A DNA stretch of 24,154 bases from Candidatus Zixiibacteriota bacterium (GCA_041742355.1 JBGSIV010000298.1:1-24154); one strand, 5' to 3'. Shown: positions 9,658 through 22,532, numbered from the stretch's first letter. Made by a program: numbers and translations. The notes: generated by a model not told the origin, from the letters alone.

Positions 9658-10947
9658 GTGGTGAAAGACGATTCAGTATATCGGCGGAGGTCGTTTCCCG
9701 CGAGATCATTGATTCTCGCCGGCACCCTCTTCGTTCTCACTGTAATTAGCGCAGCGGAGCGGCTAAAGGCAATGAATGATTTTGCTGCCGGCTGCTGCCA
9801 GGTGCCGGGAGATGTTGATCATAACGGAAAGATCAACGTTTCCGATGTCACCGTCCTGGTGGCCCACCTGTTCAAGGGCGGCCCGGATCTTGTCTGTCCG
9901 GCCGAGGCTGATCTCAATAGCGATGTCGCCCTCAACATATCCGATTTGACCTTTCTGATAGAGTTCCTCTTCCGCGGCGGTGCAGCGCCGGGGGAATGCC
10001 CCCCGCTTATCGCGATAAAGGACTTGGAGCCGGGTGACGATTCCGTGCGCGGATCGGCAAACGTTTCTCTTCCCACGGGCTACCGGGTGGTGCTCTGGGC
10101 CAAGACTGACCGCTGGTATGTCCAACCGACCACCGCCCAACCGTTCACAGTGATCCGAATCGGCGGCCGCTGGTCCAATTTCACCAACCCATGGACCCGG
10201 ATCGCGGCGTTGCTGGTCGATTCAGATTATATCCCGGGCGCGATCCGGGAAGATCACCCGGCGGTGGCTGCGGGGGTAGTGGATTGGGACGAGTACCCTG
10301 AGCGTTCGCCTGACCGATACATTGATTGGAGCAACTTCCGCTGGCGAGTAAAACAGGCAGAGCTGACGGGACCTGGTCCGAATGCGTTTTCCGACGATAC
10401 CGCCAATGTGCGGATCGACCAGGACGGCCGGCTTCACCTGAGGATAGATTACCGCAATGGCGTGTGGTACTGCGCCGAAATCGTTCTCGACCATGCGCTG
10501 GGATATGGGACGTATACCTTCCGGCTTGACTCCCGGGTCGACAACCTGAATTACAACACGATATTCGCCGGCTTCCTCTTTGACACCTCGGGACAGGAAT
10601 TCGACATGGAGTTTTCGCAGTTCCTGGCCGACCCACATAATGCGCAATTCGTGGTGCAGCCGTGGTATCTTCCCGGCAACATTGAGTTCTACGATATGCC
10701 CGATAGCGCACAGACCAGCTTTACCATGGAGTGGCGCTCCGATCACATCACCTTCACGAGTTGGCTCGGCCATGCCGACGCGCCGGAGCCGAATACGCTG
10801 CTTCACACCTGGACGTATACCGGGGCGAATATCCCGGCGCCCTCCGACGCTCGCGTGCGCTTCAACCTCTATCTCGCCAATGGCGATCCGCCTTCGCAGG
10901 GCCACGAGGACGAGGTAGTTGTCGCATCGTTTGGCTATTCTCCATAG
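9658..10947 (+). CDS. Secreted protein: N-terminal dockerin-like domain, small middle domain, C-terminal GH16-like (ConA/LamG-fold) domain
   Basis: Two EF-hand-like dockerin repeats, GDVDHNGKINVSDVTVLVAHLFKGG and ADLNSDVALNISDLTFLIEFLFRGG, flanked by Cys. C-terminal DGRLHLRI, LGYGTYTF and EFDMEF (E-x-D-x-E). The start codon could be 9658 or 9661. Confidence 0.75.
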   Translation: MVKDDSVYRRRSFPARSLILAGTLFVLTVISAAERLKAMNDFAAGCCQVPGDVDHNGKINVSDVTVLVAHLFKGGPDLVCPAEADLNSDVALNISDLTFLIEFLFRGGAAPGECPPLIAIKDLEPGDDSVRGSANVSLPTGYRVVLWAKTDRWYVQPTTAQPFTVIRIGGRWSNFTNPWTRIAALLVDSDYIPGAIREDHPAVAAGVVDWDEYPERSPDRYIDWSNFRWRVKQAELTGPGPNAFSDDTANVRIDQDGRLHLRIDYRNGVWYCAEIVLDHALGYGTYTFRLDSRVDNLNYNTIFAGFLFDTSGQEFDMEFSQFLADPHNAQFVVQPWYLPGNIEFYDMPDSAQTSFTMEWRSDHITFTSWLGHADAPEPNTLLHTWTYTGANIPAPSDARVRFNLYLANGDPPSQGHEDEVVVASFGYSP

Positions 10948-11157: not shown

Positions 11158-11592
11158 ATGCTGTTCTCAAAGGGTTGCACTTACGCCATACGCGCGGCGC
11201 TTCTGGTCGCCACGAAAGAGATCCGTGATGACCGCAAGTTCGTGCCAATCCGCGAGCTCTCCGAAGAGCTGGGCCTCTCGTTTCACTTCCTGACCAAGAT
11301 TTTGCAGCAACTGACCGAAGCCGGCATCATGGAATCGTTCCGCGGCCCCAACGGCGGTATCGGTCTTGCCCGCCCAGCCCGAAGTATCACTCTTGTCGAT
11401 GTCATTGCCGCGATTGACGGCATGTCGCTCTTTTCGAGTTGCGCGCTCGGGCTCCCCGGCTGCGGCGAACAAACCCCGTGTCCGCTACACGATGCCTGGG
11501 CCAAACGGCGGCTCGATCTCCAGCGCATGCTCGAGAAGACCACCCTGGCCTCGCTCGCTCGCGAACTTGCAACCCATGAATTGAGGAACTGA
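11158..11592 (+). CDS. Rrf2-family transcriptional regulator with three Cys (putative Fe-S binding)
   Basis: YAIRA, FLTKILQQL..AGI..SFRGPNGG..LARP...ITLVDVI winged HTH, followed by CALGLPGCGEQTPCPLH. Confidence 0.93.
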   Translation: MLFSKGCTYAIRAALLVATKEIRDDRKFVPIRELSEELGLSFHFLTKILQQLTEAGIMESFRGPNGGIGLARPARSITLVDVIAAIDGMSLFSSCALGLPGCGEQTPCPLHDAWAKRRLDLQRMLEKTTLASLARELATHELRN

Positions 11593-11631
11593 TTCGATAT
11601 GATTACCGGTCGGCTCTTCCCTTGTCTGCGT

Positions 11632-11655
11632 ATTTCAGATAACATACTCCGAAAT
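11632..11655. promoter_or_regulatory. Imperfect palindrome ATTTCAGA-N8-TCCGAAAT, candidate Rrf2 operator upstream of cytochrome c/nosZ
   Basis: 8-bp arms with one mismatch, in the AT-rich intergenic region. A weaker similar site lies at 11128-11151. Confidence 0.45.
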
Positions 11656-11726
11656 CTGCAATCAAATCGGACCCGACCATGGTGTGAAGTTATCATAGTA
11701 AATCCCATATATAAGGACCGCCACTC

Positions 11727-12269
11727 ATGAAACAATCGCATGTACTGTTCGCGGCAGCCGCTCTGGCCGTAACCGCCTTTCTGGCGATCGGCGGCTGCTC
11801 CTCCGCTCCCGAAACCGATGCGGATCGCCAGGCCCGCTGGGCGTCCGGCAATCTCAACAGCTGGGAGACCGAACACGGCATCGGGCCTGTCACCGAGGAT
11901 GTCGTGCTTGCCTCGGCGGATCCGAACCGGGCGACATCTGGCCAGGCTATTTTCGTTCAGAAGTGCGCCACGTGCCACTATCTCGATCACAAGAAGACCG
12001 GGCCGATGCTCCGCGATATCACCAAACGTCGTTCGAACGCCTACATCCTTAACCAGATCCTCAATCCGGAGCAGATGGGGAAATTGCATCCCGACGGCAA
12101 GAAGATGGTTGCCCAGTATGCGCAGTTCATGACTATTCAGGGGATCACCCGCGAAAACGCCGAGGATCTGCTGCACTTCCTTCACTCGGAAGCGGACAAG
12201 CCGGCGCTTCCGGTGGAACAGCAGCCCGGTTTTGGCGTGCCACCCCCTCCCCCACAGGCCAGTAACTGA
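11727..12269 (+). CDS. Monoheme cytochrome c lipoprotein, nos-associated
   Basis: Lipobox-like LAIGGC, heme-binding CATCH, GPML, and distal Met candidates. Lies directly upstream of nosZ, as in clade II clusters. Confidence 0.88.
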   Translation: MKQSHVLFAAAALAVTAFLAIGGCSSAPETDADRQARWASGNLNSWETEHGIGPVTEDVVLASADPNRATSGQAIFVQKCATCHYLDHKKTGPMLRDITKRRSNAYILNQILNPEQMGKLHPDGKKMVAQYAQFMTIQGITRENAEDLLHFLHSEADKPALPVEQQPGFGVPPPPPQASN

Positions 12270-12304
12270 CACCGGGACGATCGGACATCTACAGGAGGAA
12301 TATT

Positions 12305-14221
12305 ATGCGAACCAATCGATTGCTGCTGTTCACGTTGGGAGTCGGCTTTCTCATCCTGGTTGCCCTTTCGCCCGGGTGTGCCGACAAACAGGAGGCCGGC
12401 GGGTTTGGCGACGCCGCCGCCAAGGTCTATGTCGCGCCGGGCACCTACGACGAGTTCTACGCCTTCATGTCCGGCGGTTTCAGCGGGCAGGTATCAGTTT
12501 ACGGCTTGCCCTCGGGACGTCTCTTCCGGGTAATACCGGTCTTCAGCCAGGATCCGGAGAAAGGCTACGGCTATTCCGAGGAGACCAAGCCGCTGCTCAT
12601 GACGTCGCACGGCTTCATCCCCTGGGATGACGCGCACCACCCGCAACTTTCGGTATCCGACGGCCAGACCAATGGCCGCTGGCTCTTTATCAACGGCAAC
12701 AACACGCCGCGCTTGGCCCGTATCGACCTGACCACATTCGAAACGGTCGAGACCATTGAAATACCGAATTCGGCCGGCAACCATGGCTCTCCGTACGTTA
12801 CCCCCAACACCGAATATGTCGTGGCCTCGACCCGCTTCAGCGTGCCCATACCGCAGAAAGACGTTCCCATCAACACCGCTAAAGAGAACTTCAAGGGGAC
12901 GATTAGCTATATCAAGGTAGATTCGGCCACCGGCCGCATGAATCTCGCTTTTCAGATTCTCGTGCCGGGTATCGCGTACGACCTCTCCCGGGCCGGCAAA
13001 GGTCCGTCGCACGGCTGGTCGTTCTTCAGTTCCTATAACACGGAACAGGCCAGTACCCAGCTTGAGGTGAATGCTTCGCAAAACGACAAGGACTTCATCG
13101 CCGCGGTCAACTGGAAACTCGCCGAGGAGCTTGTGGCTCAGGGGAAGGGCCAGACGTGGCCCGCCAACTACTACCACAATTATATGGATGCGGCCGATGT
13201 CGGTCAGAGCGAGGTGATGAAAGAGGTCATCATGCTTAACGCCCGGGAACATCCCGGCCTGGTTTACTATCTGCCGACGCCCAAATCCCCGCATGGCTGC
13301 GATGTCGATCCGTCGGGTGAGTACATTGTCGCCAGCGGCAAACTGGCCGCTCTCATCCCCGTCCACTCCTTCAGCAAATTCCAGCAGGCGGTACAGAATA
13401 ACGACTTCGACGGGGAGTTCGAGGGAATCCCGATTGTGAAGTACGAGTCGGTCATCGCCGGCGAGGTGAAGGAACCGGGGCTCGGGCCCTTGCATACCGA
13501 GTTCGACGGAAAGGGGAATGCCTACACATCCATGTTCCTTTCCTCGGAGATCGTGAAGTGGAAACTCGGCACCTGGGAGGTGGTTGACCGCATTCCGACT
13601 TACTACAGCATCGGCCACCTCATGATCCCGGGCGGGGACACGAAACAGCCGTACGGGAAGTATGTGGTCGCGCTCAACAAGATCACCAAGGACCGCTACC
13701 TGCCGACCGGTCCCGAGTTGACCCATGCTGCGCAGCTCATCGATATCTCCGGCGACAAGATGAAGCTGCTGCTGGATTTCCCGACTATCGGTGAGCCGCA
13801 TTACGCCCAGGCCTGTCCTGCCAGTCTCCTGGTTGAGAACTCCAAACGCTGGTACGCCATCGAGGAGAACCACAATCCGCATGCCATCAAAGCCGAGGGC
13901 GAGGCCCGGGTGGAGCGGGATGGCCGCGACGTTCATGTTTACCTCAGCACTATCCGAACTCACTTCGCCCCGGATAACATCGAGGGCGTTAAGGTCGGTG
14001 ACAAGGTCTACTTCCACGTCACCAACCTCGAGCAGGATTGGGATGTCCCGCACGGCTTCGCCGTTCACGGCGCGTCCACTTCCGAACTGCTCGTGATGCC
14101 CGGCCAGACGCGCACGCTCCTGTGGGAGCCCCGGATGGCCGGCGTGATACCGTTCTACTGCACCGATTTCTGCTCCGCGCTGCATCAGGAGATGCAGGGC
14201 TGGATCAGGGTTTCAAACTAA
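12305..14221 (+). CDS. nosZ: Nitrous oxide reductase, clade II (Sec-dependent)
   Basis: AGGAGG RBS. No twin-Arg motif. YGLPSGRL; CuZ His motifs DAHHP, GNHG, SPHG, IGH, GPLHT, EPH; CuA HGF...CTDFCSALHQEM. No fused C-terminal cytochrome c. Confidence 0.98.
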   Translation: MRTNRLLLFTLGVGFLILVALSPGCADKQEAGGFGDAAAKVYVAPGTYDEFYAFMSGGFSGQVSVYGLPSGRLFRVIPVFSQDPEKGYGYSEETKPLLMTSHGFIPWDDAHHPQLSVSDGQTNGRWLFINGNNTPRLARIDLTTFETVETIEIPNSAGNHGSPYVTPNTEYVVASTRFSVPIPQKDVPINTAKENFKGTISYIKVDSATGRMNLAFQILVPGIAYDLSRAGKGPSHGWSFFSSYNTEQASTQLEVNASQNDKDFIAAVNWKLAEELVAQGKGQTWPANYYHNYMDAADVGQSEVMKEVIMLNAREHPGLVYYLPTPKSPHGCDVDPSGEYIVASGKLAALIPVHSFSKFQQAVQNNDFDGEFEGIPIVKYESVIAGEVKEPGLGPLHTEFDGKGNAYTSMFLSSEIVKWKLGTWEVVDRIPTYYSIGHLMIPGGDTKQPYGKYVVALNKITKDRYLPTGPELTHAAQLIDISGDKMKLLLDFPTIGEPHYAQACPASLLVENSKRWYAIEENHNPHAIKAEGEARVERDGRDVHVYLSTIRTHFAPDNIEGVKVGDKVYFHVTNLEQDWDVPHGFAVHGASTSELLVMPGQTRTLLWEPRMAGVIPFYCTDFCSALHQEMQGWIRVSN

Positions 14222-14227
14222 GGAAGT

Positions 14228-14929
14228 ATGGTGTCTGTGAGCAACAAGCCGCAATCGGATGGTTCCGCGAAAGCGGGGCCATCCACTCCCACGGAATCTC
14301 TGGAGCGGATTCGGCGCCCCGGGGATCCGCTGCGCATGTCCTCCCGTTTCGCGATTGTTGCGGTTGCCCTTCTGTTGTCTCTTACCTACTACTTCCCGCT
14401 GTGGGAAATCACTCTCGACGCCCCGCAGTATCCGGAGGGACTGGGTCTGGAGATCTGGATCAACCAGATACAGGGGCAACATCCGGGTGACCTGAACAAG
14501 ATCAACAACCTGAATCACTACATCGGCATGAAGAAGATTCAGCCCGAATCGATTCCCGAACTGCGCGTGATGCCCTGGGTGATGCGGGGTCTGATGCTCT
14601 TCGGTATAGTCGTGGCACTGGTGGGAAAGAGAGGTCTGCTGTTTGCCTGGCTGGTGCTTTTCGTTGCGGTCGCGGCGGCCGGCTTTGTCGACTTCTACCT
14701 CTGGGGTTACGATTACGGCCACAATCTCGACACCGAACATGCGATCATAAAGGTTCCGGGAATGAGCTATCAGCCGCCGGTCATTGGAAGCAAGAAACTG
14801 CTCAATTTCAAAGCCATCTCTCTGCCGGGGATTGCCGGCTATGTCGCTATAGGATCTTTCCTGTGTGCGGCTTCAGTCTGGTTTATCGAGTTCCGTCGCG
14901 CTCGAAAAGGAGGTTTCCGTGGACTATAG
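14228..14929 (+). CDS. nosB: NosB-like membrane protein of clade II nos clusters
   Basis: PLWEITLDAPQYPEGL, INNLNHYIGMK, DFYLWGYDYGHNLD and YQPPVIG motifs, four hydrophobic segments, immediately after nosZ. Confidence 0.85.
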   Translation: MVSVSNKPQSDGSAKAGPSTPTESLERIRRPGDPLRMSSRFAIVAVALLLSLTYYFPLWEITLDAPQYPEGLGLEIWINQIQGQHPGDLNKINNLNHYIGMKKIQPESIPELRVMPWVMRGLMLFGIVVALVGKRGLLFAWLVLFVAVAAAGFVDFYLWGYDYGHNLDTEHAIIKVPGMSYQPPVIGSKKLLNFKAISLPGIAGYVAIGSFLCAASVWFIEFRRARKGGFRGL

Positions 14930-15398
14930 GCGTATCCCGCTGGCAACTCTTATCTCCGCCGCCGTGCTCGTCGCAGTCGGGTGCTCGAGTCCCGGCCCGG
15001 CAGAGATTCACTACGGCGCTGACCTGTGCGACTACTGCGACATGACCATCGCCGACCAGGCCTTCGGCGCCGAACTGGTCACGACCAAGGGGAAGGTGCT
15101 CAAGTTCGACTCGATTGAATGCCTCGCCGCCTCCAGTGTTGAAGAGCGAATTGCCGGCGTTGATGTTCACTCCCTGTGGGTCACCGACTTCCATCAACCG
15201 GGGTCATTTTTGACTGTCGGCGAGGCAGTGATAGTCGCCACAGATCGCCAGAAGAGTCCCATGGGGATCGGGCTCGTGGCTGTTGGTTCCCAGGCGGCCG
15301 CGGTTGATCTCATAGCCCAGAAGGGCGGTCGGATCGTGGATTGGGACATTACCAAGAGGCTGGTTGCGCAGAGCTGGGAGATTGAGGTTTCCCGATGA
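14919..15398 (+). CDS. nosL: Copper chaperone lipoprotein NosL
   Basis: Preferred start is GTG at 14919 after AGGAGG. Lipobox VAVGC, then CDYCDMTI, KFDSIECL and SPMG. Confidence 0.9.
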   Translation: MDYRRIPLATLISAAVLVAVGCSSPGPAEIHYGADLCDYCDMTIADQAFGAELVTTKGKVLKFDSIECLAASSVEERIAGVDVHSLWVTDFHQPGSFLTVGEAVIVATDRQKSPMGIGLVAVGSQAAAVDLIAQKGGRIVDWDITKRLVAQSWEIEVSR

Positions 15399-16642
15399 AC
15401 GTCTTTACCTGCGCGACAGTGTGGTTTAGTGCCGCTATGGTGGTTGGGGCCTGTGCCTCAGAAGCCACCGTGTTGCGCGTGCAGCCTGCCAGTACATTTG
15501 AGACTATCGGCGCCGCCCTCGCTGTCGCTGTTCCTGGCGACACGATCGCCGTTAAACCGGGCACGTATACGGAGTACGGGTTACGCATCGACAAACCGAT
15601 CACTTTGCTTGGCTTCGGCCGGCCGGTCCTCGATGCCGCCGGAAGGGGGGCGCTGCTTACGGTAACCTGCCCCGGCGTGACGATTGCCGGATTCGTCCTT
15701 CGCAATGTCCCGGCCAGCCACATCAAGGAGCATGCCGCGGTCTTGCTCGACGGCGTGGCGGACTGCGAAATTAGAGACAACCGCATCGAGGGCTGCTTCT
15801 TCGCGATCTACCTGTCCAAGTCCGAGCGCTGTCGGATTAGCGGCAATGAGATTATCGGTTCATCGACGGAGCTTACCGGTTCGGGCAATGGCATTCATCT
15901 TTGGAACAGCCGTGATATCGCCATCCATGAAAATACGATACGCGGCCACCGCGACGGCATCTACCTCGAATTTGTCAAGCACAGCCGGATTTCCGGTAAC
16001 ACAAGCGCCGGCAATTTCCGTTATGGACTGCACTTCATGTTCTCCGACAGCTGCCGTTATGAAGACAACAGCTTTCTCCGCAACGGTTCCGGTGTTGCCG
16101 TGATGTACACGAAGAATGTCGACATGACCGGCAACACGTTTTCGGAGAGTTGGGGCGGAGCCTCCTATGGCCTGCTGCTCAAGGACATCAAAGACAGCCG
16201 CGTTGTCCGGAACGAGTTCCTTTCCAATTCGGTCGGGGTTCACATGGAGGGTTCCGACCGCATCGCGATCGAGTTCAACCGGTTTGTTGACAACGGCTGG
16301 GCGATCAGGATAATGGCCAATTGCGTGGACAGCGATATTCGCGACAACGACTTCATTGACAATTCATTTCAGGTCGCCACCAACAGCCGCCAGACGTTCA
16401 GCCGTTTCGATCGCAACTACTGGAGTGCCTACCGCGGTTACGATCTCGATCGCGACGGCTACGGCGACGAGCCTTTCCGGCCAGTCAGTCTGTACAGTCT
16501 ACTCGTCGAGTCTGAACCTGCGACACTCGTACTGGTCCGCAGTCTGCTTGTCGATGTCCTCAATCTCGCCGAGCGCGTTGTGCCCACGCTCACTCCCGAG
16601 GCGCTGATCGACTCACGTCCCCGTATGAGGCCAATTACATGA
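15395..16642 (+). CDS. nosD: NosD, periplasmic beta-helix maturation protein
   Basis: GNGIHLW, GHRDGIYLEF, RYGLHFMFS, GVAVMY, NYWSAYRGYDLDRDGYGD. ATGA overlap with nosL. Confidence 0.95.
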   Translation: MNVFTCATVWFSAAMVVGACASEATVLRVQPASTFETIGAALAVAVPGDTIAVKPGTYTEYGLRIDKPITLLGFGRPVLDAAGRGALLTVTCPGVTIAGFVLRNVPASHIKEHAAVLLDGVADCEIRDNRIEGCFFAIYLSKSERCRISGNEIIGSSTELTGSGNGIHLWNSRDIAIHENTIRGHRDGIYLEFVKHSRISGNTSAGNFRYGLHFMFSDSCRYEDNSFLRNGSGVAVMYTKNVDMTGNTFSESWGGASYGLLLKDIKDSRVVRNEFLSNSVGVHMEGSDRIAIEFNRFVDNGWAIRIMANCVDSDIRDNDFIDNSFQVATNSRQTFSRFDRNYWSAYRGYDLDRDGYGDEPFRPVSLYSLLVESEPATLVLVRSLLVDVLNLAERVVPTLTPEALIDSRPRMRPIT

Positions 16643-17349
16643 TCGAAATCACGGCTCTTCATAAACGTTTCGGCCGGTTCGTGGCCCTGCACGAAATCAA
16701 CCTCTCTATCGAGCGGGGCAAGATCACGGGTATCATTGGTCCAAACGGTTCCGGCAAGTCGACGTTGCTGAAGTCTCTCCTGGGGCTCGTTACACCGACC
16801 TCGGGGCGAATCACTATCGATGGCTACCTCCTCGATTCGTCCTGTGACTACCGCACCCGGCTCGGTTATGTGCCGCAGGTTGCACGTTTCCCGCAGGAAC
16901 TCACAGGGGCGGAGGTGTTGGCGACTGTCAAAGGTCTGCGCGCCACAGCCCCTACCCGCGAACAGGAACTAATCCGGCTCTTCGAACTCGAATCGGAAAT
17001 GCCCAAGCGTGTCCGGGCGATGTCCGGCGGAACTCGTCAGAAATTGAGTATGCTTCTGGCCGGTATGTACGATCCGCCGCTCCTCATCTGCGACGAACCG
17101 ACCGCCGGTCTCGACCCGGTCGCAAACACCCGCCTGAAAGCGCACCTCTTGTCGCTGCGCGAGCAGTCGCGCACGGTGGTTGTTACGACTCACATCATGA
17201 GCGATCTGGATGAAATCGCCGATAACGTCGTCGTCCTCCTTGAGGGCCGCGTCCGCTTCAGCGGGGCTGTCCGCGATCTCAAGCTCCGGACTGAGGAACC
17301 GCATCTGGAGGCCGCCGTCGCCCGCCTGCTCGAAAAGGGGGCCGCATGA
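16639..17349 (+). CDS. nosF: NosF, ABC transporter ATPase
   Basis: Walker A GPNGSGKS, signature MSGGTRQK, Walker B ICDEPT, H-loop TTH. Lies between nosD and nosY with ATGA overlaps. Confidence 0.92.
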   Translation: MIEITALHKRFGRFVALHEINLSIERGKITGIIGPNGSGKSTLLKSLLGLVTPTSGRITIDGYLLDSSCDYRTRLGYVPQVARFPQELTGAEVLATVKGLRATAPTREQELIRLFELESEMPKRVRAMSGGTRQKLSMLLAGMYDPPLLICDEPTAGLDPVANTRLKAHLLSLREQSRTVVVTTHIMSDLDEIADNVVVLLEGRVRFSGAVRDLKLRTEEPHLEAAVARLLEKGAA

Positions 17350-18137
17350 GACTCACCCTGCATATCGCCTGGTACACGATCCGCGACCTCACCCGCAACC
17401 GCTGGGGTCTGCTCTACGCCTGCTTCTTCGCCGTCGTCACCATCGGCCTGTTCCATCTGCAGGCGCAGTCCGCCAAGGTGGTCGTGAGCCTTATGAGTGT
17501 CTGCCTGTTTCTCATCCCCCTGGTATCGTCCCTCTTTGGGACTATCTACCTCTACAACTCTCGCGAGTTCATTGAACTGGTGCTCACTCAACCGGTATCC
17601 CGCCGGACCGTATTTTTCGGCATGTTCACCGGTCTGGCTGCTGCGCTGGTCGCGGGGTTTTCCCTTGGTGTCGGCGTACCTTCCGTCATATTCGGATCCT
17701 GGTCCACTGCTCATTTCCTGTCCAGTTCGCTCCTGATCCTCGTCGGCGCCATTCTCACCGTGATCTTTCTGGCCCTCGCGTTTCTGCTGGCCCTTCGGTT
17801 CGATGACCGCGGCAAGGGGCTCGCCGCCGCGCTCGGTGTGTGGCTCTTCGCCGCGCTCCTCTATGACGGGCTCGTCCTGCTCGGTGCGATGGCCTTCGCC
17901 GACTATCCGCTCGAGTTCCCGCTGCTCTTTGCCTCTATGGCCAACCCGATAGATCTCGCTCGCGTCATTCTCCTGACCCACACCGATTGGGCCGCTCTTA
18001 TGGGCTACACCGGGGCGGTTTTCCAGCGCTTCTTCGGAACGACGCTGGGTCTTGCTATAGCGTCACTCTCACTGGCCGCCTGGGCCGCTGTCCCCTTGAT
18101 GTTCGGCCTGCGGACGTTTCGCACGAAGGACTTCTGA
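17346..18137 (+). CDS. nosY: NosY, ABC permease
   Basis: YNSREFIELVLTQP, NPIDLARV and AALMGYTGAVF motifs, about six TM segments. Confidence 0.9.
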   Translation: MRLTLHIAWYTIRDLTRNRWGLLYACFFAVVTIGLFHLQAQSAKVVVSLMSVCLFLIPLVSSLFGTIYLYNSREFIELVLTQPVSRRTVFFGMFTGLAAALVAGFSLGVGVPSVIFGSWSTAHFLSSSLLILVGAILTVIFLALAFLLALRFDDRGKGLAAALGVWLFAALLYDGLVLLGAMAFADYPLEFPLLFASMANPIDLARVILLTHTDWAALMGYTGAVFQRFFGTTLGLAIASLSLAAWAAVPLMFGLRTFRTKDF

Positions 18138-18178
18138 ACTATGCGCCCCGTCCACACCATTTTGGGAGGATCTCGACT

Positions 18179-19663
18179 GTGACCTCTTTCGTGAGCAACC
18201 TGATTCGGTGCCGCTGGCTGCTGGCCGCCGATTCGTCGCAGCTCGCCCGCCTGTACCTGCTGACGCTCGGCTTTTTCGCGCTCTCCGGCACTATCGCTGC
18301 CCTTGTCCTCCAGCTTGAACTCGGCAGCGCCTCCAGCCACTTGGTGAGTGCGCACCGTTTCGGCCAGCTCTTTACCCACCACGGCCTGGTCATGGCCTTT
18401 GTCGTCCTCCTCCCGCTTATCCCGGCCGTGTTCGGCAACCTCGCTCTTCCGGGGGCGGTCGGCGCCCGCGGTTTGGCCGGACTCGGATGGAACCGCGCCG
18501 CGTGGGTTCTGCACGCCGTCGGAGGAGTGGCGGTCATTGTCGCTGTCGAGTCCGGAGCGTACGACAGCGGCTGGACTCTCCTCATGCCGGCTGGGAGCTC
18601 ACAGCTCTACCCGGTTCTCCTTGGCGGTCTACTCCTGGTCGCTGTCGCCACGTTCATCATCAATTGGTCTGTCGTTGCGACGATCCTGAGCAGGAAACAT
18701 CGCTCCATTCCTCTATCCAACATACCCATCATCGCGTGGTTCTTCTTATTCGGAGCGTTGGTTGTGGTCCTGGTCAGCCCGATTCGCTGTTTCACCCTTG
18801 TCGTTCAAATTCTCCATCAGGTTGGCCTGGGCGACTTCCTCTCCCCCGACAATCCCGAAAGCATCACGCGCTACCAACGTCTCTTCTGGGCCTATGCGGG
18901 AACCGCAACGAGCGCTGCCGCTCTCCCGGCACTCGGCATCACGCTTCATATCGGGGCGACCCACGGCCGAGCAAACGTGTTCCTGCATCGGGTAGTCGTA
19001 TTCGCCGGACTTGCAGTGGGCCTGCTCAGCCTTGTTTCCTGGGGGCAGCATCTTCTCACTGCCGCCGACTCCCAGAAACTCGCCGTCACCGGCAGTTTCT
19101 TCGGCCTGCTCGCCTCGGTACCAACCGGCATTATTCTGCTGAGCCTTTTGGTCATGCTCTTTCAGGCTCGATCCCGTCGGGCTGTTCCCGTCCTGATCGC
19201 CTGGCTGCAAATCGGCCTCATCACCCTTGGCAGCCTGGCCGGCCTTGTGCTGGCCGCACCTGCCACCGGCGCCGTCCACCACAACAGTTACCTTGCTACC
19301 GGCCACCTGCACCTGCTGGTGGTCGGCGGCATAGTTCTTTCCTTCTTTTCCGGAATATTCCATTGGATTCAGCTGCCCGATGGCCGCGCGACGACTGTCG
19401 GCCGTTTGGCTATCGGCGCCCTTGCCCTCGGCGTGCTGCTGACGTATGTGCCCATGCTCGTCAACGGCCTCGGAGGCTCTCCGAAAGCCCTATTTGTCTA
19501 CCCGGATCGCTATGCATCGATGCACACGGTGTCCTCGATCGGCACCCTTATACTCACGCTCGCCCTGCTGACTTTGATTGGGCTCATTGGCCACGCCAGT
19601 GCTCAAAGTCGCACAGTCGAGACGTCCCGGCCGAAACCCGTTCCGGGTGAGACCTTCGCATGA
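18179..19663 (+). CDS. Degenerate heme-copper oxidase subunit I (CoxI/CtaD-like) homologue lacking CuB ligands
   Basis: Preferred start is GTG at 18179 after GGGAGG (the ORF track starts at 17987, inside nosY). Collinear CoxI motifs: FTHHGLVM, PAVFGN, GWT, YQRLFW, SWGQH, VPTG, HNSYLATGHLH, YPD. About 12 TM segments. Confidence 0.85.
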   Translation: MTSFVSNLIRCRWLLAADSSQLARLYLLTLGFFALSGTIAALVLQLELGSASSHLVSAHRFGQLFTHHGLVMAFVVLLPLIPAVFGNLALPGAVGARGLAGLGWNRAAWVLHAVGGVAVIVAVESGAYDSGWTLLMPAGSSQLYPVLLGGLLLVAVATFIINWSVVATILSRKHRSIPLSNIPIIAWFFLFGALVVVLVSPIRCFTLVVQILHQVGLGDFLSPDNPESITRYQRLFWAYAGTATSAAALPALGITLHIGATHGRANVFLHRVVVFAGLAVGLLSLVSWGQHLLTAADSQKLAVTGSFFGLLASVPTGIILLSLLVMLFQARSRRAVPVLIAWLQIGLITLGSLAGLVLAAPATGAVHHNSYLATGHLHLLVVGGIVLSFFSGIFHWIQLPDGRATTVGRLAIGALALGVLLTYVPMLVNGLGGSPKALFVYPDRYASMHTVSSIGTLILTLALLTLIGLIGHASAQSRTVETSRPKPVPGETFA

Positions 19664-19670
19664 TGTTCCC

Positions 19671-19700
19671 TTGATTCACCGATTTGGGATGCTTTATATT
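19671..19700 (+). promoter_or_regulatory. Possible internal promoter for the DUF438/DUF1858 genes
   Basis: TTGATT (19671-19676), 18-bp spacer, TATATT (19695-19700), in an AT-rich gap of about 100 bp. Confidence 0.35.
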
Positions 19701-19767
19701 ATCTGCACAAACAAACCTTCGCGATCCGCACTCCGCGCAGGTAATCGTAGCCGAAAGGATTTGACCA

Positions 19768-21009
19768 ATGAGTGAACTCATAGATAATACCCTCGCCCGC
19801 CGCGCCGTGCTCAAACACCTCATCCTGCAACTCCATTCGGGGCAGGCCGCCGAACACGTCAAACCGCAGTTGCTCCGCCTTCTCGGGCGCGTTCCCTACA
19901 ATGAGGTTGTCGCTGTCGAACAGGAACTCATCGCCGAGGGCATGCCGATCGAGGAAATCATGCGCTTGTGCGATCTCCATTCGGCCGCCATGCGAGGCGC
20001 GATCGATCACGGCGAAGAACGGGTGGCTCTTCCCGGTCACCCCGTACATACTTTCAAGAAAGAAAACGAAGCTCTCCTCGGCGAACTCGAACTGGTCGAC
20101 AAGCTCTTCACTGAAATCGCCGCTCTCCCTGATGATGCCGATGCCTCGGAGCCGCTCGGCTACCTTCGGGTTCGTTTCAGCCGCCTGGGTGATATCGAGA
20201 AACACTATTCCCGCAAGGAGAATCTCGTCTTCCCCTACCTGGAGCAGAAGGGCATCACCGGCCCGTCGACGGTCATGTGGGGCAAAGACAATGAGGTTCG
20301 CGATCTTGTCAAAGCGGCCGGCGAAACCCTCCTTGTTACCGAATCAATCGACGCTGCCGATGCCCGCGAACTGACCAATGTGGTCTTGCGTCCCGCTGTC
20401 GATGCCATTAAGGAGATGATCTTCAAAGAGGAGGAGATCCTTCTCCCGATGTGCCTCGACAAATTGTCCGATGATGAGTGGTATGCGATCGCCGTCCAGA
20501 GCCCGGAGATTGGGTTTTGCATCTATGATCCCGTCGACACGTGGACTCCGTCCGGTACTCCGGCCGAGTCCGCGCCGACCGCTGAGACCGGCCGCGTTAA
20601 CTTCGCTACCGGCAGCCTCTCGCCAACCGAACTGGAGTGCATCCTCAATACTATCCCCTTCGACCTGACTTTTGTCGGCGCCGATGATACCGTCCGCTAT
20701 TTCACCCAGGGGCGCGAGCGCATCTTCGACCGCAACCGCGCCATTATCGGCCGCCAGGTCCAGATGTGCCGTCCGCCGGCCAGTGTCCATATCGTCCAGC
20801 GTATACTCGATGATTTCAAGGGCGGCAAGGCCGATCGCGCCCCGTTTTGGATCAATCTCAAGGGAAAGTTCATACATATCGAGTACTTCGCTATTCGCGA
20901 CCGACAGGGTAAGTACCTCGGTACCCTCGAGGTCAGTCAGGACCTGACCGAAAAGCGGGCTCTCACCGGCGAACAACGCCTGCTTTCGTACACGAGGATC
21001 GATGTATGA
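19768..21009 (+). CDS. DUF438 + hemerythrin-like + PAS_10 domain protein
   Basis: EQELIAEGM..EEIMRLCDLHS (DUF438); GHPVHTF..EN, HYSRKENLVFPYLE, VMW, MIFKEEEIL (hemerythrin-like); PFDLTFV..DDTVRYF..IGRQVQMCRPP..YLGTLEVSQD (PAS). Confidence 0.88.
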   Translation: MSELIDNTLARRAVLKHLILQLHSGQAAEHVKPQLLRLLGRVPYNEVVAVEQELIAEGMPIEEIMRLCDLHSAAMRGAIDHGEERVALPGHPVHTFKKENEALLGELELVDKLFTEIAALPDDADASEPLGYLRVRFSRLGDIEKHYSRKENLVFPYLEQKGITGPSTVMWGKDNEVRDLVKAAGETLLVTESIDAADARELTNVVLRPAVDAIKEMIFKEEEILLPMCLDKLSDDEWYAIAVQSPEIGFCIYDPVDTWTPSGTPAESAPTAETGRVNFATGSLSPTELECILNTIPFDLTFVGADDTVRYFTQGRERIFDRNRAIIGRQVQMCRPPASVHIVQRILDDFKGGKADRAPFWINLKGKFIHIEYFAIRDRQGKYLGTLEVSQDLTEKRALTGEQRLLSYTRIDV

Positions 21010-21581
21010 TCGACAACCGCCCCCCAATCACGCCCCAGTCGAAGGTGGGCGATATTCTCAGCGCCTATCCGGAGCTTGAGGAGACTCTGATAGCGATCGC
21101 CCCCGCTTTCAAGAAGCTGCGTAATCCTCTGCTGCGGCGAACTGTGGCACGGGTCACCAGTCTCGCCCAAGCGGCGCGGGTTGGCAATGTCTCTGTCGCC
21201 GAGCTCGTTCAGCGCCTTCGTGCTGCGGTTGGTCAACCTGAGTTCGTCGGCGAAACGGAAGAGACAGGTTTAACGGTGTTGTCGGAAGTGCCGTCGCATA
21301 TTGATCTGGCGAAAGTGGTCGAGACCATTGATGCCCGTCCGATGATAGAGGCCGGCGAACAGCCGATGACGCTTGTGCTTAAGGCCATCAATAAGCTGGA
21401 GGGAGAAGCTCTCCTGTTGCTCATCACGCCCTTCGAACCGGCGCCGCTGCGCGATCGCGCAAGGGAGCGCGGGTTTCAGAGCGTCGCGGTGAGGCACAGT
21501 GCGGGAGTGGTGACTACGTACTTCTGGCGAGAGCGGCCTCTGTCAACTCTTTCAGAACCGCAGGATTCCAGTCTTCGGTGA
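21006..21581 (+). CDS. DUF1858 + DUF2249 (SirA/TusA-like) domain protein
   Basis: KVGDILSAYPEL..FKKLRNPLLRRTVAR.TSL.QAA (DUF1858) and IDARPMIEAGEQP..PFEPAPL..GF (DUF2249-like). ATGA overlap with the upstream gene. Confidence 0.8.
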   Translation: MIDNRPPITPQSKVGDILSAYPELEETLIAIAPAFKKLRNPLLRRTVARVTSLAQAARVGNVSVAELVQRLRAAVGQPEFVGETEETGLTVLSEVPSHIDLAKVVETIDARPMIEAGEQPMTLVLKAINKLEGEALLLLITPFEPAPLRDRARERGFQSVAVRHSAGVVTTYFWRERPLSTLSEPQDSSLR

Positions 21582-21586
21582 CGGTC

Positions 21587-22039
21587 TCAGCGCGCAATCG
21601 AGTCGTCGATAATCGCCTTCAATTCGCCGGTTTGATCAATTTGCCATTTGTCGATGGCGGGGTCGTCGTCGAGGCGCTCGGCGACTGCCGTGGCGACAAA
21701 GGCATCCGGTGTTCCGGTAATGGTATAGGCGTAGCGAGCCGAGATCATGATTTCTACGCCGAGGGTGTCAAACGCAAAGGGGGTATCCTTGCCAGCGACC
21801 GTCCCCGAACTGGGAATCCAGTACTGGTCATGCTCCTGGAAGTACGAGCGCTCCATAAGGTAGATCTGGTGGAGCAGTTCCTTGGCTTCGGTCTGCTTGG
21901 CTTTGGTGGTCGAACTCATGTAGCGGGGAATAGCGATTCCCGCAAGAATCCCGATGATGACCAGGACGATGAGCAATTCGAGCAGGGAAAACCCGCGGTT
22001 ACTGGTCAGCCGGTGGCGGCGCGTACTGGTAGTACTCAT
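21587..22039 (-). CDS. Type IV pilin / pseudopilin (major-pilin-like)
   Basis: Class III signal RG|FSLLELLIVLVIIGILAGIAIP with E5. GAGGA RBS upstream. Confidence 0.9.
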   Translation of the reverse strand: MSTTSTRRHRLTSNRGFSLLELLIVLVIIGILAGIAIPRYMSSTTKAKQTEAKELLHQIYLMERSYFQEHDQYWIPSSGTVAGKDTPFAFDTLGVEIMISARYAYTITGTPDAFVATAVAERLDDDPAIDKWQIDQTGELKAIIDDSIAR

Positions 22040-22532
22040 GGAAGTTCCTCACGAGAAGTGCACAGGTATCCGCGGCGCTGCGATCGCTTATTGCGAAGCG
22101 AACGAAGTACAAGCCGGGCCGGGTTACCTGTGCCGCACGTAATATGGTATCAGGTGACTCTTGTGGCAGCGGAAACGGAGTGATCGCCAGGTGCTCGAAG
22201 CTGTAGCCGGGTTGCAGGAGGATCTGGCGGTCCGACTGGAGCTGTCCGTCCGGCCACCGGTAGCACGCTCGTTCCTTTGCGGAATCGAAAAAGACGATGC
22301 TGTCGGGATAGCGCGCGATCGACGTGCAGGAGGCCATGTGCTCTGACAGCAGTTGGGCGGCGAAGGCGACTTCTTCTGCCCGGCTGTTTTGCCGGCGCCA
22401 CCGCTCGACATAGCGCTGGACAAACAGCGTGCCGGACACGACCATCACCAGGAGGATAGCCGTGATGGCCAGCGACACCAGCAACTCGACGAGCGTGACA
22501 CCACGGTTACTGTGCAGACGGGGTGAACTCAT
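21999..22532 (-). CDS. Minor pilin / pseudopilin
   Basis: RG|VTLVELLVSLAI prepilin cleavage motif. Overlaps neighbouring genes at both ends. Confidence 0.8.
   Translation of the reverse strand: MSSPRLHSNRGVTLVELLVSLAITAILLVMVVSGTLFVQRYVERWRRQNSRAEEVAFAAQLLSEHMASCTSIARYPDSIVFFDSAKERACYRWPDGQLQSDRQILLQPGYSFEHLAITPFPLPQESPDTILRAAQVTRPGLYFVRFAISDRSAADTCALLVRNFHEYYQYAPPPADQ

Follow-up and report, generated by a model that had tools for sequence, protein, structure and literature searches.

To our knowledge, nitrous oxide (N2O) reductase (NosZ) alone serves as a biological sink for N2O, and how clade II NosZ is supplied, maintained and shielded from O2 and nitric oxide (NO) where neither NosR nor NosGH is encoded is the question raised by the locus described here. 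The locus lies on a contig of 24,154 nucleotides (nt) from a Candidatus Zixiibacteriota bacterium (GCA_041742355.1, JBGSIV010000298.1; C298 in our numbering), a complete contig of a draft genome of 4.37 Mb and 93.8% completeness; this whole stretch is hereafter called the window. It carries a clade II nos cluster with a gene after nosY that encodes a homologue of oxidase subunit I, which we name COX1L. An initial annotation of the sequence suggested, as a speculation, that COX1L, having no subunit II, could dock the CuA domain of NosZ or the cytochrome c and pass electrons outward from the quinone pool, in the direction opposite to that of an oxidase. Here we find that COX1L is indeed a conserved nos-cluster member under selection and without a subunit II, whereas the route from quinol through COX1L to NosZ CuA was not borne out as the electron supply. 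COX1L is usually encoded next to a hemerythrin-type protein, and the pair is likely to be something other than the main electron feed to NosZ. Tentatively, we regard it as an accessory module that may tune or protect N2O respiration.

Results

COX1L, a subunit I homologue without its copper site

COX1L matches PF00115 well above the family cut-off (189 vs. 34.8 bits) and scores far below the cut-offs of TIGR02891 (231.8 bits; cut-off 670.75) and TIGR02843 (144 bits; cut-off 1020). Its AF2 model (predicted local distance difference test score, pLDDT, 87.6; predicted template modelling score, pTM, 0.89) superposed on A-family subunit I of mitochondria and bacteria with a Foldseek template modelling (TM) score of 0.89 (E 1e-20), and its best sequence matches in the PDB were likewise A-family COX1. 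The initial annotation had called the protein degenerate, and rightly so. Relative to human and bacterial COX1, the window copy has Gly at H240, Ser at Y244, Gln at H290, Ala at E242 and Ile at K319 (human COX1 numbering throughout). It retains H61 and H378 of the low-spin haem, H376 of the high-spin haem, and H291.

An alignment of 27 COX1L relatives extends this pattern to the family. The low-spin haem ligands H61 and H378 and the structural residue W236 are kept in 27 of 27. Among the CuB ligands, H240 is Gly in 22 sequences, Asn in 4 and His in 1; H290 is Gln in 22, Met in 3, Glu in 1 and Arg in 1; and H291 remains His in 20, being Asn in 4 and Ser in 3. The cross-linked Tyr at position 244 survives in 3/27 and the D-channel Glu at 242 in 0/27, while the K-channel Lys at 319 is likewise found in 0/27, with Ile, Leu or Phe in its place in all 27. 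The high-spin haem ligand at 376 is His in 18, Gln in 6 and Met in 3. No cofactor ligands other than those of the low-spin haem, the one through which electrons enter, are common to all 27 relatives. Additionally, of the two Arg residues linking CuA to haem a, the second has given way to another residue in each COX1L row aligned. The losses at H240, H290, Y244, E242 and K319, together with the invariant H61 and H378, therefore indicate that the catalytic centre is gone and a redox haem remains. Since two of the three CuB His residues, the Tyr and the channel residues are lost, COX1L is no O2 reductase; by descent it is a member of the oxidase superfamily, and it fails the defining features of the superfamily's enzymes.

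The best conserved loops of COX1L are the periplasmic loops IX-X (3.06 bits) and XI-XII (2.86 bits), and mean loop conservation is 2.54 bits on the periplasmic side vs. 2.22 bits on the cytoplasmic side. An invariant low-spin site combined with conserved periplasmic loops would fit some electron-transfer or redox role. We also compared 11 close pairs of COX1L genes for the ratio of non-synonymous to synonymous substitution rates (dN/dS). Two pairs were saturated and gave no value; in all nine pairs with unsaturated dS the ratio was 0.07-0.24, including pairs without H376. These values rule out a relic or pseudogene. A bo3-type quinol oxidase was also considered and rejected, as none of the residues R71, D75, H98 and Q101 of the bo3-type site in Escherichia coli CyoB (NC_000913) is conserved in 24 COX1L rows; this rejection concerns the bo3-type site and does not extend to quinol sites of other kinds.

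COX1L is linked to nos genes within one phylum

Our survey took in 285 genomes from the phylum to which the window belongs (record names give it as Zixibacteria); flanks were annotated with the window's own proteins, and COX1L was found at 28 loci in 25 genomes. At 27 of these, COX1L is preceded on its own strand by nosY; the remaining locus (L092) is a 3-kb contig without upstream sequence. The common order is Rrf2-cytochrome c-nosZ-nosB-nosL-nosD-nosF-nosY-COX1L. Where the distance between nosY and COX1L could be measured it is 0-90 nt in 21/25 loci, the others being 170, 212, 428 (with a split nosY) and 1976 nt. Canonical COX1 loci fetched for comparison adjoin COX2 in 4/4 cases and carry no nos gene. 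The linkage of COX1L to nos is far beyond chance.

In a quick tree, 26 COX1L sequences form one clade with a Shimodaira-Hasegawa-like approximate likelihood ratio (SH-aLRT) of 100, and a search with the family profile through 1.84 billion cluster representatives recovered only seven of the COX1L family (470-696 bits). Within the phylum, nosZ occurs in 41/285 genomes: 25 with COX1L, 8 whose cluster is the same but lacks COX1L, 4 with a different nos type that has neither Rrf2 nor cytochrome c in the cluster, and 4 in which a contig end cuts the cluster. The eight clusters that end at nosY without COX1L are L074, L075, L079, L082, L083, L084, L086 and L089. In the NosZ tree, carriers and non-carriers are interleaved, and at least four gains or losses of COX1L are needed. 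Because eight sister nos clusters do without it, COX1L is accessory and not essential.

Several loci deserve separate mention. The record of L010 (CAZILL010000001.1; G061) is labelled uncultured Ignavibacteriales bacterium and is placed in the GTDB family of the window and of L011, whose record bears a Zixibacteria label, so that title and placement conflict for L010. One genome (G005) has two nos clusters, L050 and L051, that look decayed, an assembly error being equally possible: nosY and Rrf2 are split in L050, and in L051 both COX1L and NosZ are split, the latter with a TGA. At L080 (10370-15637; G127), a nos cluster is followed by a divergent COX1-like gene, Rrf2, a hemerythrin gene and the quinol-dependent NO reductase (NOR) gene, qNOR. 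The COX1-like protein of that locus is identical to representative P0033 and far more divergent than the other COX1L proteins; it has lost H290 and keeps H240 and Y244.

A hemerythrin-type gene accompanies COX1L

A hemerythrin-type gene, overlooked by the initial annotation, adjoins or follows COX1L in 26/28 loci. In 19 loci, this is a gene for a small hemerythrin (~200 amino acids, aa; PF01814) directly downstream on the same strand. Its motifs EH, HHxxEE, H and HIcxEdH are conserved, as in the di-iron type, and it has no signal peptide. The small hemerythrin is also present in the decayed copies L050 and L051, and in L080 it stands after Rrf2 and before qNOR. The window, L059, L060 and L061 have in its place a pair of genes for a DUF438-hemerythrin-PAS protein and a DUF1858-DUF2249 protein; in the locus annotation, the former adjoins COX1L in L053, L059, L060 and L061. 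No match to the small hemerythrin above 30 bits occurs in any of the eight nos clusters without COX1L. In one of these (L079:10761-11093; G115), a 111-aa open reading frame (ORF) with a 25-bit match to the small hemerythrin lies right after nosY and may be what is left of a COX1L-hemerythrin pair since lost.

No other proteins of the cluster evolve as fast as COX1L and the hemerythrin, whose mean -ln identity values are 0.84 and 0.93, compared with 0.16-0.41 for the Nos proteins. Across 15 loci, the partial distance correlation with COX1L was highest for the hemerythrin (0.58), followed by NosD (0.51), NosZ (0.11) and cytochrome c (0.04); the pairs underlying these values are non-independent, and a 22-locus version was made without the hemerythrin. 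From the gene pairing, the hemerythrin-type protein is a likely candidate for the partner of COX1L. An apparent fusion of the two proteins in L050 was discarded. It is an in-frame deletion joining helix XII to the middle of the hemerythrin, and it was not counted as natural because it occurs in a cluster with other split genes.

Tests of COX1L as the electron supply of NosZ

The initial annotation held that the cluster contains no gene for nosR or nosX, nosG or nosH, a Rieske protein, cytochrome b, COX2 or COX3, and Pfam and NCBIfam scans of the span confirmed this. A cognate subunit II does not lie elsewhere either: exactly one PF00116 match was found in 23/25 carrier genomes and none in two incomplete ones, and the match adjoins a canonical COX1 wherever both positions are listed (C225 in the window's genome). 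The expected mutual exclusivity of COX1L with a quinol:cytochrome c oxidoreductase failed, since ActD, a component of alternative complex III, is present in 24/25 carriers and in 8/8 non-carrier nos genomes. The window's genome itself encodes a full ActABCDEF alternative complex III with a caa3 oxidase on C225, a cbb3-type CcoN frame on C92 (its C-terminal part has a CxxCH) with a cytochrome c after it, and qNOR pieces at three contig ends. Neither a cytochrome b match nor an FMN_bind (NosR-type) match was found in this genome at its 93.8% completeness. Three frames for Fer4_5 (NapH/CcoG-type) membrane proteins lie outside the nos cluster on C75, C160 and C147, and another Fer4_5 frame adjoins cbb3 on C92.

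Nor does NosZ bear a mark of COX1L. No NosZ alignment column separates 23 sequences from COX1L-bearing clusters from 8 COX1L-less ones, and the partial distance correlation between the two proteins is about zero. The face that the CuA domain turns to subunit I in oxidases is the face that, in the NosZ dimer, is directed toward the CuZ centre of the other monomer. A COX2-like pose of the NosZ CuA domain on COX1L would clash because the same face meets CuZ in the dimer. In agreement with this geometry, a figure legend in PMC13685413 presents NosZ as a functional homodimer, with CuA-CuZ distances taken between the two monomers. Moreover, the proposed route from quinol through COX1L to NosZ CuA does not explain the cytoplasmic hemerythrin, which is the best candidate partner. 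Taken together, these indirect tests do not favour docking of NosZ CuA on COX1L, itself putative, as the main electron feed.

Organization of the nos cluster

Gene calls in the window were made with Pfam and NCBIfam scans. The clade II nos cluster occupies 11158-21581 on the + strand, including the downstream hemerythrin-type genes (Table 1), and is assigned to clade II by its Sec-type NosZ, nosB and nosDFYL and the absence of nosR. The span given in the initial annotation ends at 19663 and so omits the hemerythrin-type genes at 19768-21581 that belong with COX1L.

Table 1. Genes of the nos cluster in the window
Feature	Coordinates	Strand	Evidence
Rrf2-family regulator, first gene of the cluster	11158..11592	+	PF02082 100.8 bits; TIGR00738 102 bits
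Monohaem cytochrome c, probable lipoprotein	11727..12269	+	PF00034 44 bits; signal peptide then GGC
NosZ, clade II Sec-type, C-terminal CuA domain at ~residues 513-638	12305..14221	+	TIGR04246 927.4 bits, cut-off 625
NosB, 233-aa polytopic membrane protein	14228..14929	+	motifs NLNHYIGM, YDYGHN; four hydrophobic stretches
NosL, copper chaperone lipoprotein	14865..15398	+	PF05573 46 bits
NosD	15395..16642	+	TIGR04247 422 bits, cut-off 300
NosF, ABC ATPase	16639..17349	+	PF00005 103 bits; between nosD and nosY
NosY, ABC-2 permease	17346..18137	+	PF12679 34 bits; orthologues directly upstream of COX1L in related loci
COX1L, 494-aa 12-helix oxidase subunit I homologue	18179..19663	+	PF00115 189 bits
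DUF438-hemerythrin-PAS_10 protein	19768..21009	+	PF04282, PF01814, PF13596
DUF1858-DUF2249 protein, DrpB-like domain set	21006..21581	+	PF08984, PF10006

The Rrf2 regulator has a C-x6-C-x5-C motif of the iron-sulfur (Fe-S) type (Cys94, Cys101 and Cys107) and also heads the cluster in related loci, where the cytochrome c gene upstream of nosZ is conserved as well. The CuA-type motif H..C..C..H..M is seen in the window's NosZ and is invariant in the alignment of NosZ CuA domains. The nosB frame has no Pfam or NCBIfam match in the scans of the window; its product matches the NosB motifs LNHYIGM and YGHN as quoted in PMC9697520. NosB is fused to NosL in L010 and L011.

The COX1L frame is open from 17987, as the initial annotation stated. 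We place the start at the GTG at 18179, nine bases after a GGGAGG at 18164-18169, because the longer frame overlaps nosY. This likely start leaves a gap of 41 nt after nosY, with no terminator-like site within it. Upstream of the nos cluster, a 429-aa ORF at 9658-10947 (+) has a dockerin type I domain (PF00404, 27.8 bits). At the other end, a 201-aa ORF at 21578-22183 (+) is low in complexity and rich in Arg and Gly, has no family match, shares sequence with opposite-strand ORFs that overlap it, and probably does not represent a gene.

Other copper-less subunit I homologues

COX1L is not alone in having lost its copper ligands. Among the best 150 cluster representatives for the COX1L profile (P0027-P0176), 79 are canonical, with HHYHHHH at the seven ligand positions, and in about 70 different CuB or high-spin haem ligands are missing, the low-spin His pair being nearly always kept. 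In a quick tree the degenerate representatives are spread over several clades, intermingled with canonical ones. Three degenerate relatives that could be placed in a genomic context (L093, L094 and L095) are not linked to nos and have no redox neighbours. One of them, at L093:7792-9309 (G082:C70), represents a second degenerate COX1-like family in the phylum; it has the pattern HSTEHHH, like P0034, and follows a gene for a DUF255 thioredoxin-domain protein. A metagenome scan for degenerate relatives was unspecific: of 80 loci, 71 were canonical COX1, 7 were cut rows of canonical type, one more row had only the C-terminal His pair, and only L094 and L095 were degenerate. Copper-less subunit I homologues seem to be widespread. 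They may be counted as oxidases in surveys, which bears on gene counts for oxidases and NORs in metagenomes.

Discussion

What COX1L and its hemerythrin-type neighbour might do is something we infer from the gene pattern. Our preferred explanation, held tentatively as a possibility, is that the two proteins form an accessory haem/di-iron module that responds to redox state or to a gas (O2 or NO) and tunes or protects N2O respiration. Under this explanation, COX1L would bind a bis-His haem b near the periplasmic side and, in 18/27 members, a second, five-coordinate haem with Gln290 and His291 above it. The haem would equilibrate with the quinol or cytochrome c pool, or would bind O2 or NO. Its state could then be passed to, or shared with, the di-iron hemerythrin at the cytoplasmic face of COX1L. 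In the window's genome, the DUF438-hemerythrin-PAS protein and the DrpB-like protein would fill the slot of the small hemerythrin. The surroundings have a bearing on NO or O2 as well, with an Fe-S-type Rrf2 regulator at the head of the cluster and, in L080, a hemerythrin gene between the COX1-like gene and qNOR.

Several observations weigh against this explanation. The one site kept throughout the family is that of a six-coordinate haem, of the kind that typically carries electrons and does not bind gases, and the haem presumed to bind gas lacks its His in 9/27 members that are still under selection. The small hemerythrin shows no recognisable output domain, and hemerythrin is cytoplasmic, whereas NosZ is periplasmic. 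Two loci with COX1L (L043 and L058) have no hemerythrin gene of either kind nearby, and a search of the rest of the window's genome gave no small hemerythrin. Finally, the correlation of COX1L with NosD is nearly as high as that with the hemerythrin, among pairs that are non-independent.

Other explanations have to be weighed against the accessory module. The one nearest to the initial annotation casts COX1L as a quinol dehydrogenase with haem b, or as a membrane dock, and would have it deliver electrons on the periplasmic side to the lipoprotein cytochrome c or to NosZ. Such a relay would account for the invariant low-spin His pair and for the strong conservation of loops IX-X and XI-XII. It would suit a cluster without nosR, nosGH or bc genes in a genome without an FMN_bind or cytochrome b match, and carrier genomes with no spare subunit II. 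It also has a precedent in OccS, which the accessible part of its report presents as a copper-poor subunit I homologue in a multihaem cytochrome cluster (bioRxiv 10.1101/695007). We nevertheless consider it rather unlikely, since COX1L has not retained the bo3 quinol-site residues, every aligned row has another residue for the second Arg of the pair under CuA, and ActD is as common in non-carriers (8/8) as in carriers (24/25). In addition, eight sister clusters do without COX1L, no NosZ column discriminates between the two groups, the partial correlations with NosZ and cytochrome c over 15 loci are negligible, and the cytoplasmic hemerythrin is left unexplained. A role outside redox chemistry, whether as a scaffold for maturation by NosDFY, NosB and NosL, as a channel, or as a decaying relic, appears unlikely. 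The relic is excluded by the dN/dS values, and the invariant bis-His pair argues that haem matters. Still, COX1L is among the fastest-evolving proteins of the cluster, is encoded directly after nosFY, has a partial correlation with NosD of 0.51-0.56, and has been lost repeatedly, all of which a non-redox role would accommodate.

A further proposal is that COX1L and the hemerythrin form a new transmembrane redox link, in which a cytoplasmic di-iron centre would be coupled to a haem b on the periplasmic side of an emptied oxidase scaffold; the link would feed or re-activate NosZ, directly or through the lipoprotein cytochrome c, in bacteria lacking NosR and NosGH, as an oxidase-derived counterpart of NosR. 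In our judgement this is quite unlikely. A NosR-like form, in which the di-iron hemerythrin in the cytoplasm and COX1L with its haem near the periplasm would jointly move a signal or reducing power through the membrane and keep NosZ (CuZ) active where NosR or NosGH is lacking, strikes us as very doubtful. Both haems of the oxidase fold lie near the periplasm, about 30 A from the cytoplasmic surface and too far for direct transfer, and eight clusters work without the pair. The idea draws on the COX1L-hemerythrin gene pairing, on the cytoplasmic position of the subunit I C-terminus, as judged by homology, and on a layout resembling that of NosR, in which a metal centre in the cytoplasm, a body in the membrane and a periplasm-side redox cofactor are combined. 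The scaffold of COX1L is that of O2 and NO reductases, Gln290 and His291 lie over the high-spin haem in most members, and a hemerythrin partner is at hand, so that a new catalytic NO or O2 reductase with a haem-only or a haem plus di-iron site can be imagined. It is highly improbable, given that COX1L has no proton channels, lacks the high-spin haem His in 9/27 members, and occurs in a genome that already has qNOR pieces, cbb3 and caa3. Moreover, in the part of the NOR survey available, NOR families keep three active-site His residues, or two His and an Asp in gNOR (PMC11214002), where COX1L has one or none.

Comparison with known systems places COX1L closest to A-family subunit I (CtaD/CoxA, PF00115). 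The two share the 12-helix fold, the low-spin His pair, W236 and many Gly and Pro residues. Unlike those proteins, COX1L has no subunit II or III, lacks two of the three CuB His residues, the Tyr, E242, K319 and the D-channel Asp, and is encoded in a nos operon and not in an oxidase operon. The closest published analogue we found, likened to COX1L by description only, is OccS of 'Candidatus Dechloromonas occultata'. According to the accessible portion of its report, OccS is a subunit I homologue of unknown function that keeps the haem His residues and one CuB His (bioRxiv 10.1101/695007). As described there, it resembles COX1L in having lost the Tyr, most other CuB His residues and the D and K channels, and in being encoded among periplasmic electron-transfer genes. 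It differs in being betaproteobacterial and linked to multihaem cytochromes instead of nos, and that portion of the text mentions no hemerythrin.

The NOR families cNOR, qNOR, eNOR, sNOR, gNOR, nNOR and bNOR have three active-site His residues, one of them replaced in gNOR, and the newer families are B-family relatives and have CuA-type second subunits, as set out in the available sections of PMC11214002. Going by that description, they are like COX1L in being derived from oxidases, in lacking the Tyr and in occurring in denitrification contexts, whereas COX1L is A-family-like, has at most one of the three His residues and has no second subunit. COX1L as a member of a described NOR family was rejected, the metal site of three His (or two His and an Asp) in that description being absent. 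The head rows of the genome tables accompanying PMC11214002 list no class for COX1L-like proteins.

NosR of clade I and NosGH-C1C2 of clade II are, like COX1L, membrane-bound accessory redox proteins encoded in nos clusters, whereas their folds and cofactors (flavin mononucleotide, FMN, and Fe-S; NapGH-like) are unrelated to those of COX1L and none of them occurs in this cluster. The role of NosR in nos clusters is described in the accessible part of PMC13685413. For the pairing itself there are parallels in NorA-NorB, hemerythrin/RIC and DrpA/DrpB, in which a cytoplasmic hemerythrin-type or DUF1858/DUF2249 protein stands beside a membrane enzyme of a nitrogen-oxide pathway and has a role in NO binding or regulation. 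The hemerythrin-like NorA, for example, is encoded beside the qNOR NorB. What sets NorA-NorB and DrpA/DrpB apart from the present pair is a membrane partner that functions as an enzyme (qNOR, Nar). DrpB, a DUF1858/DUF2249 protein, regulates nitrate respiration in Thermus and associates with the membrane through an unknown partner, according to the available part of PMC6282519. Full-text literature searches, which did not cover subscription-only nos reviews, returned no oxidase subunit I homologue and no hemerythrin pairing in nos clusters.

COX1L and its hemerythrin make up an accessory pair, not described before as far as we could find, that is conserved and under selection in nos clusters of a single phylum. 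COX1L is a natural example of an oxidase scaffold that has been reused, shedding its catalytic copper centre and keeping one haem site, and the pair offers a concrete candidate for testing. If the transmembrane link to NosZ, which we judge quite unlikely, were true, the pair would do the work of NosR with a protein derived from an oxidase subunit.

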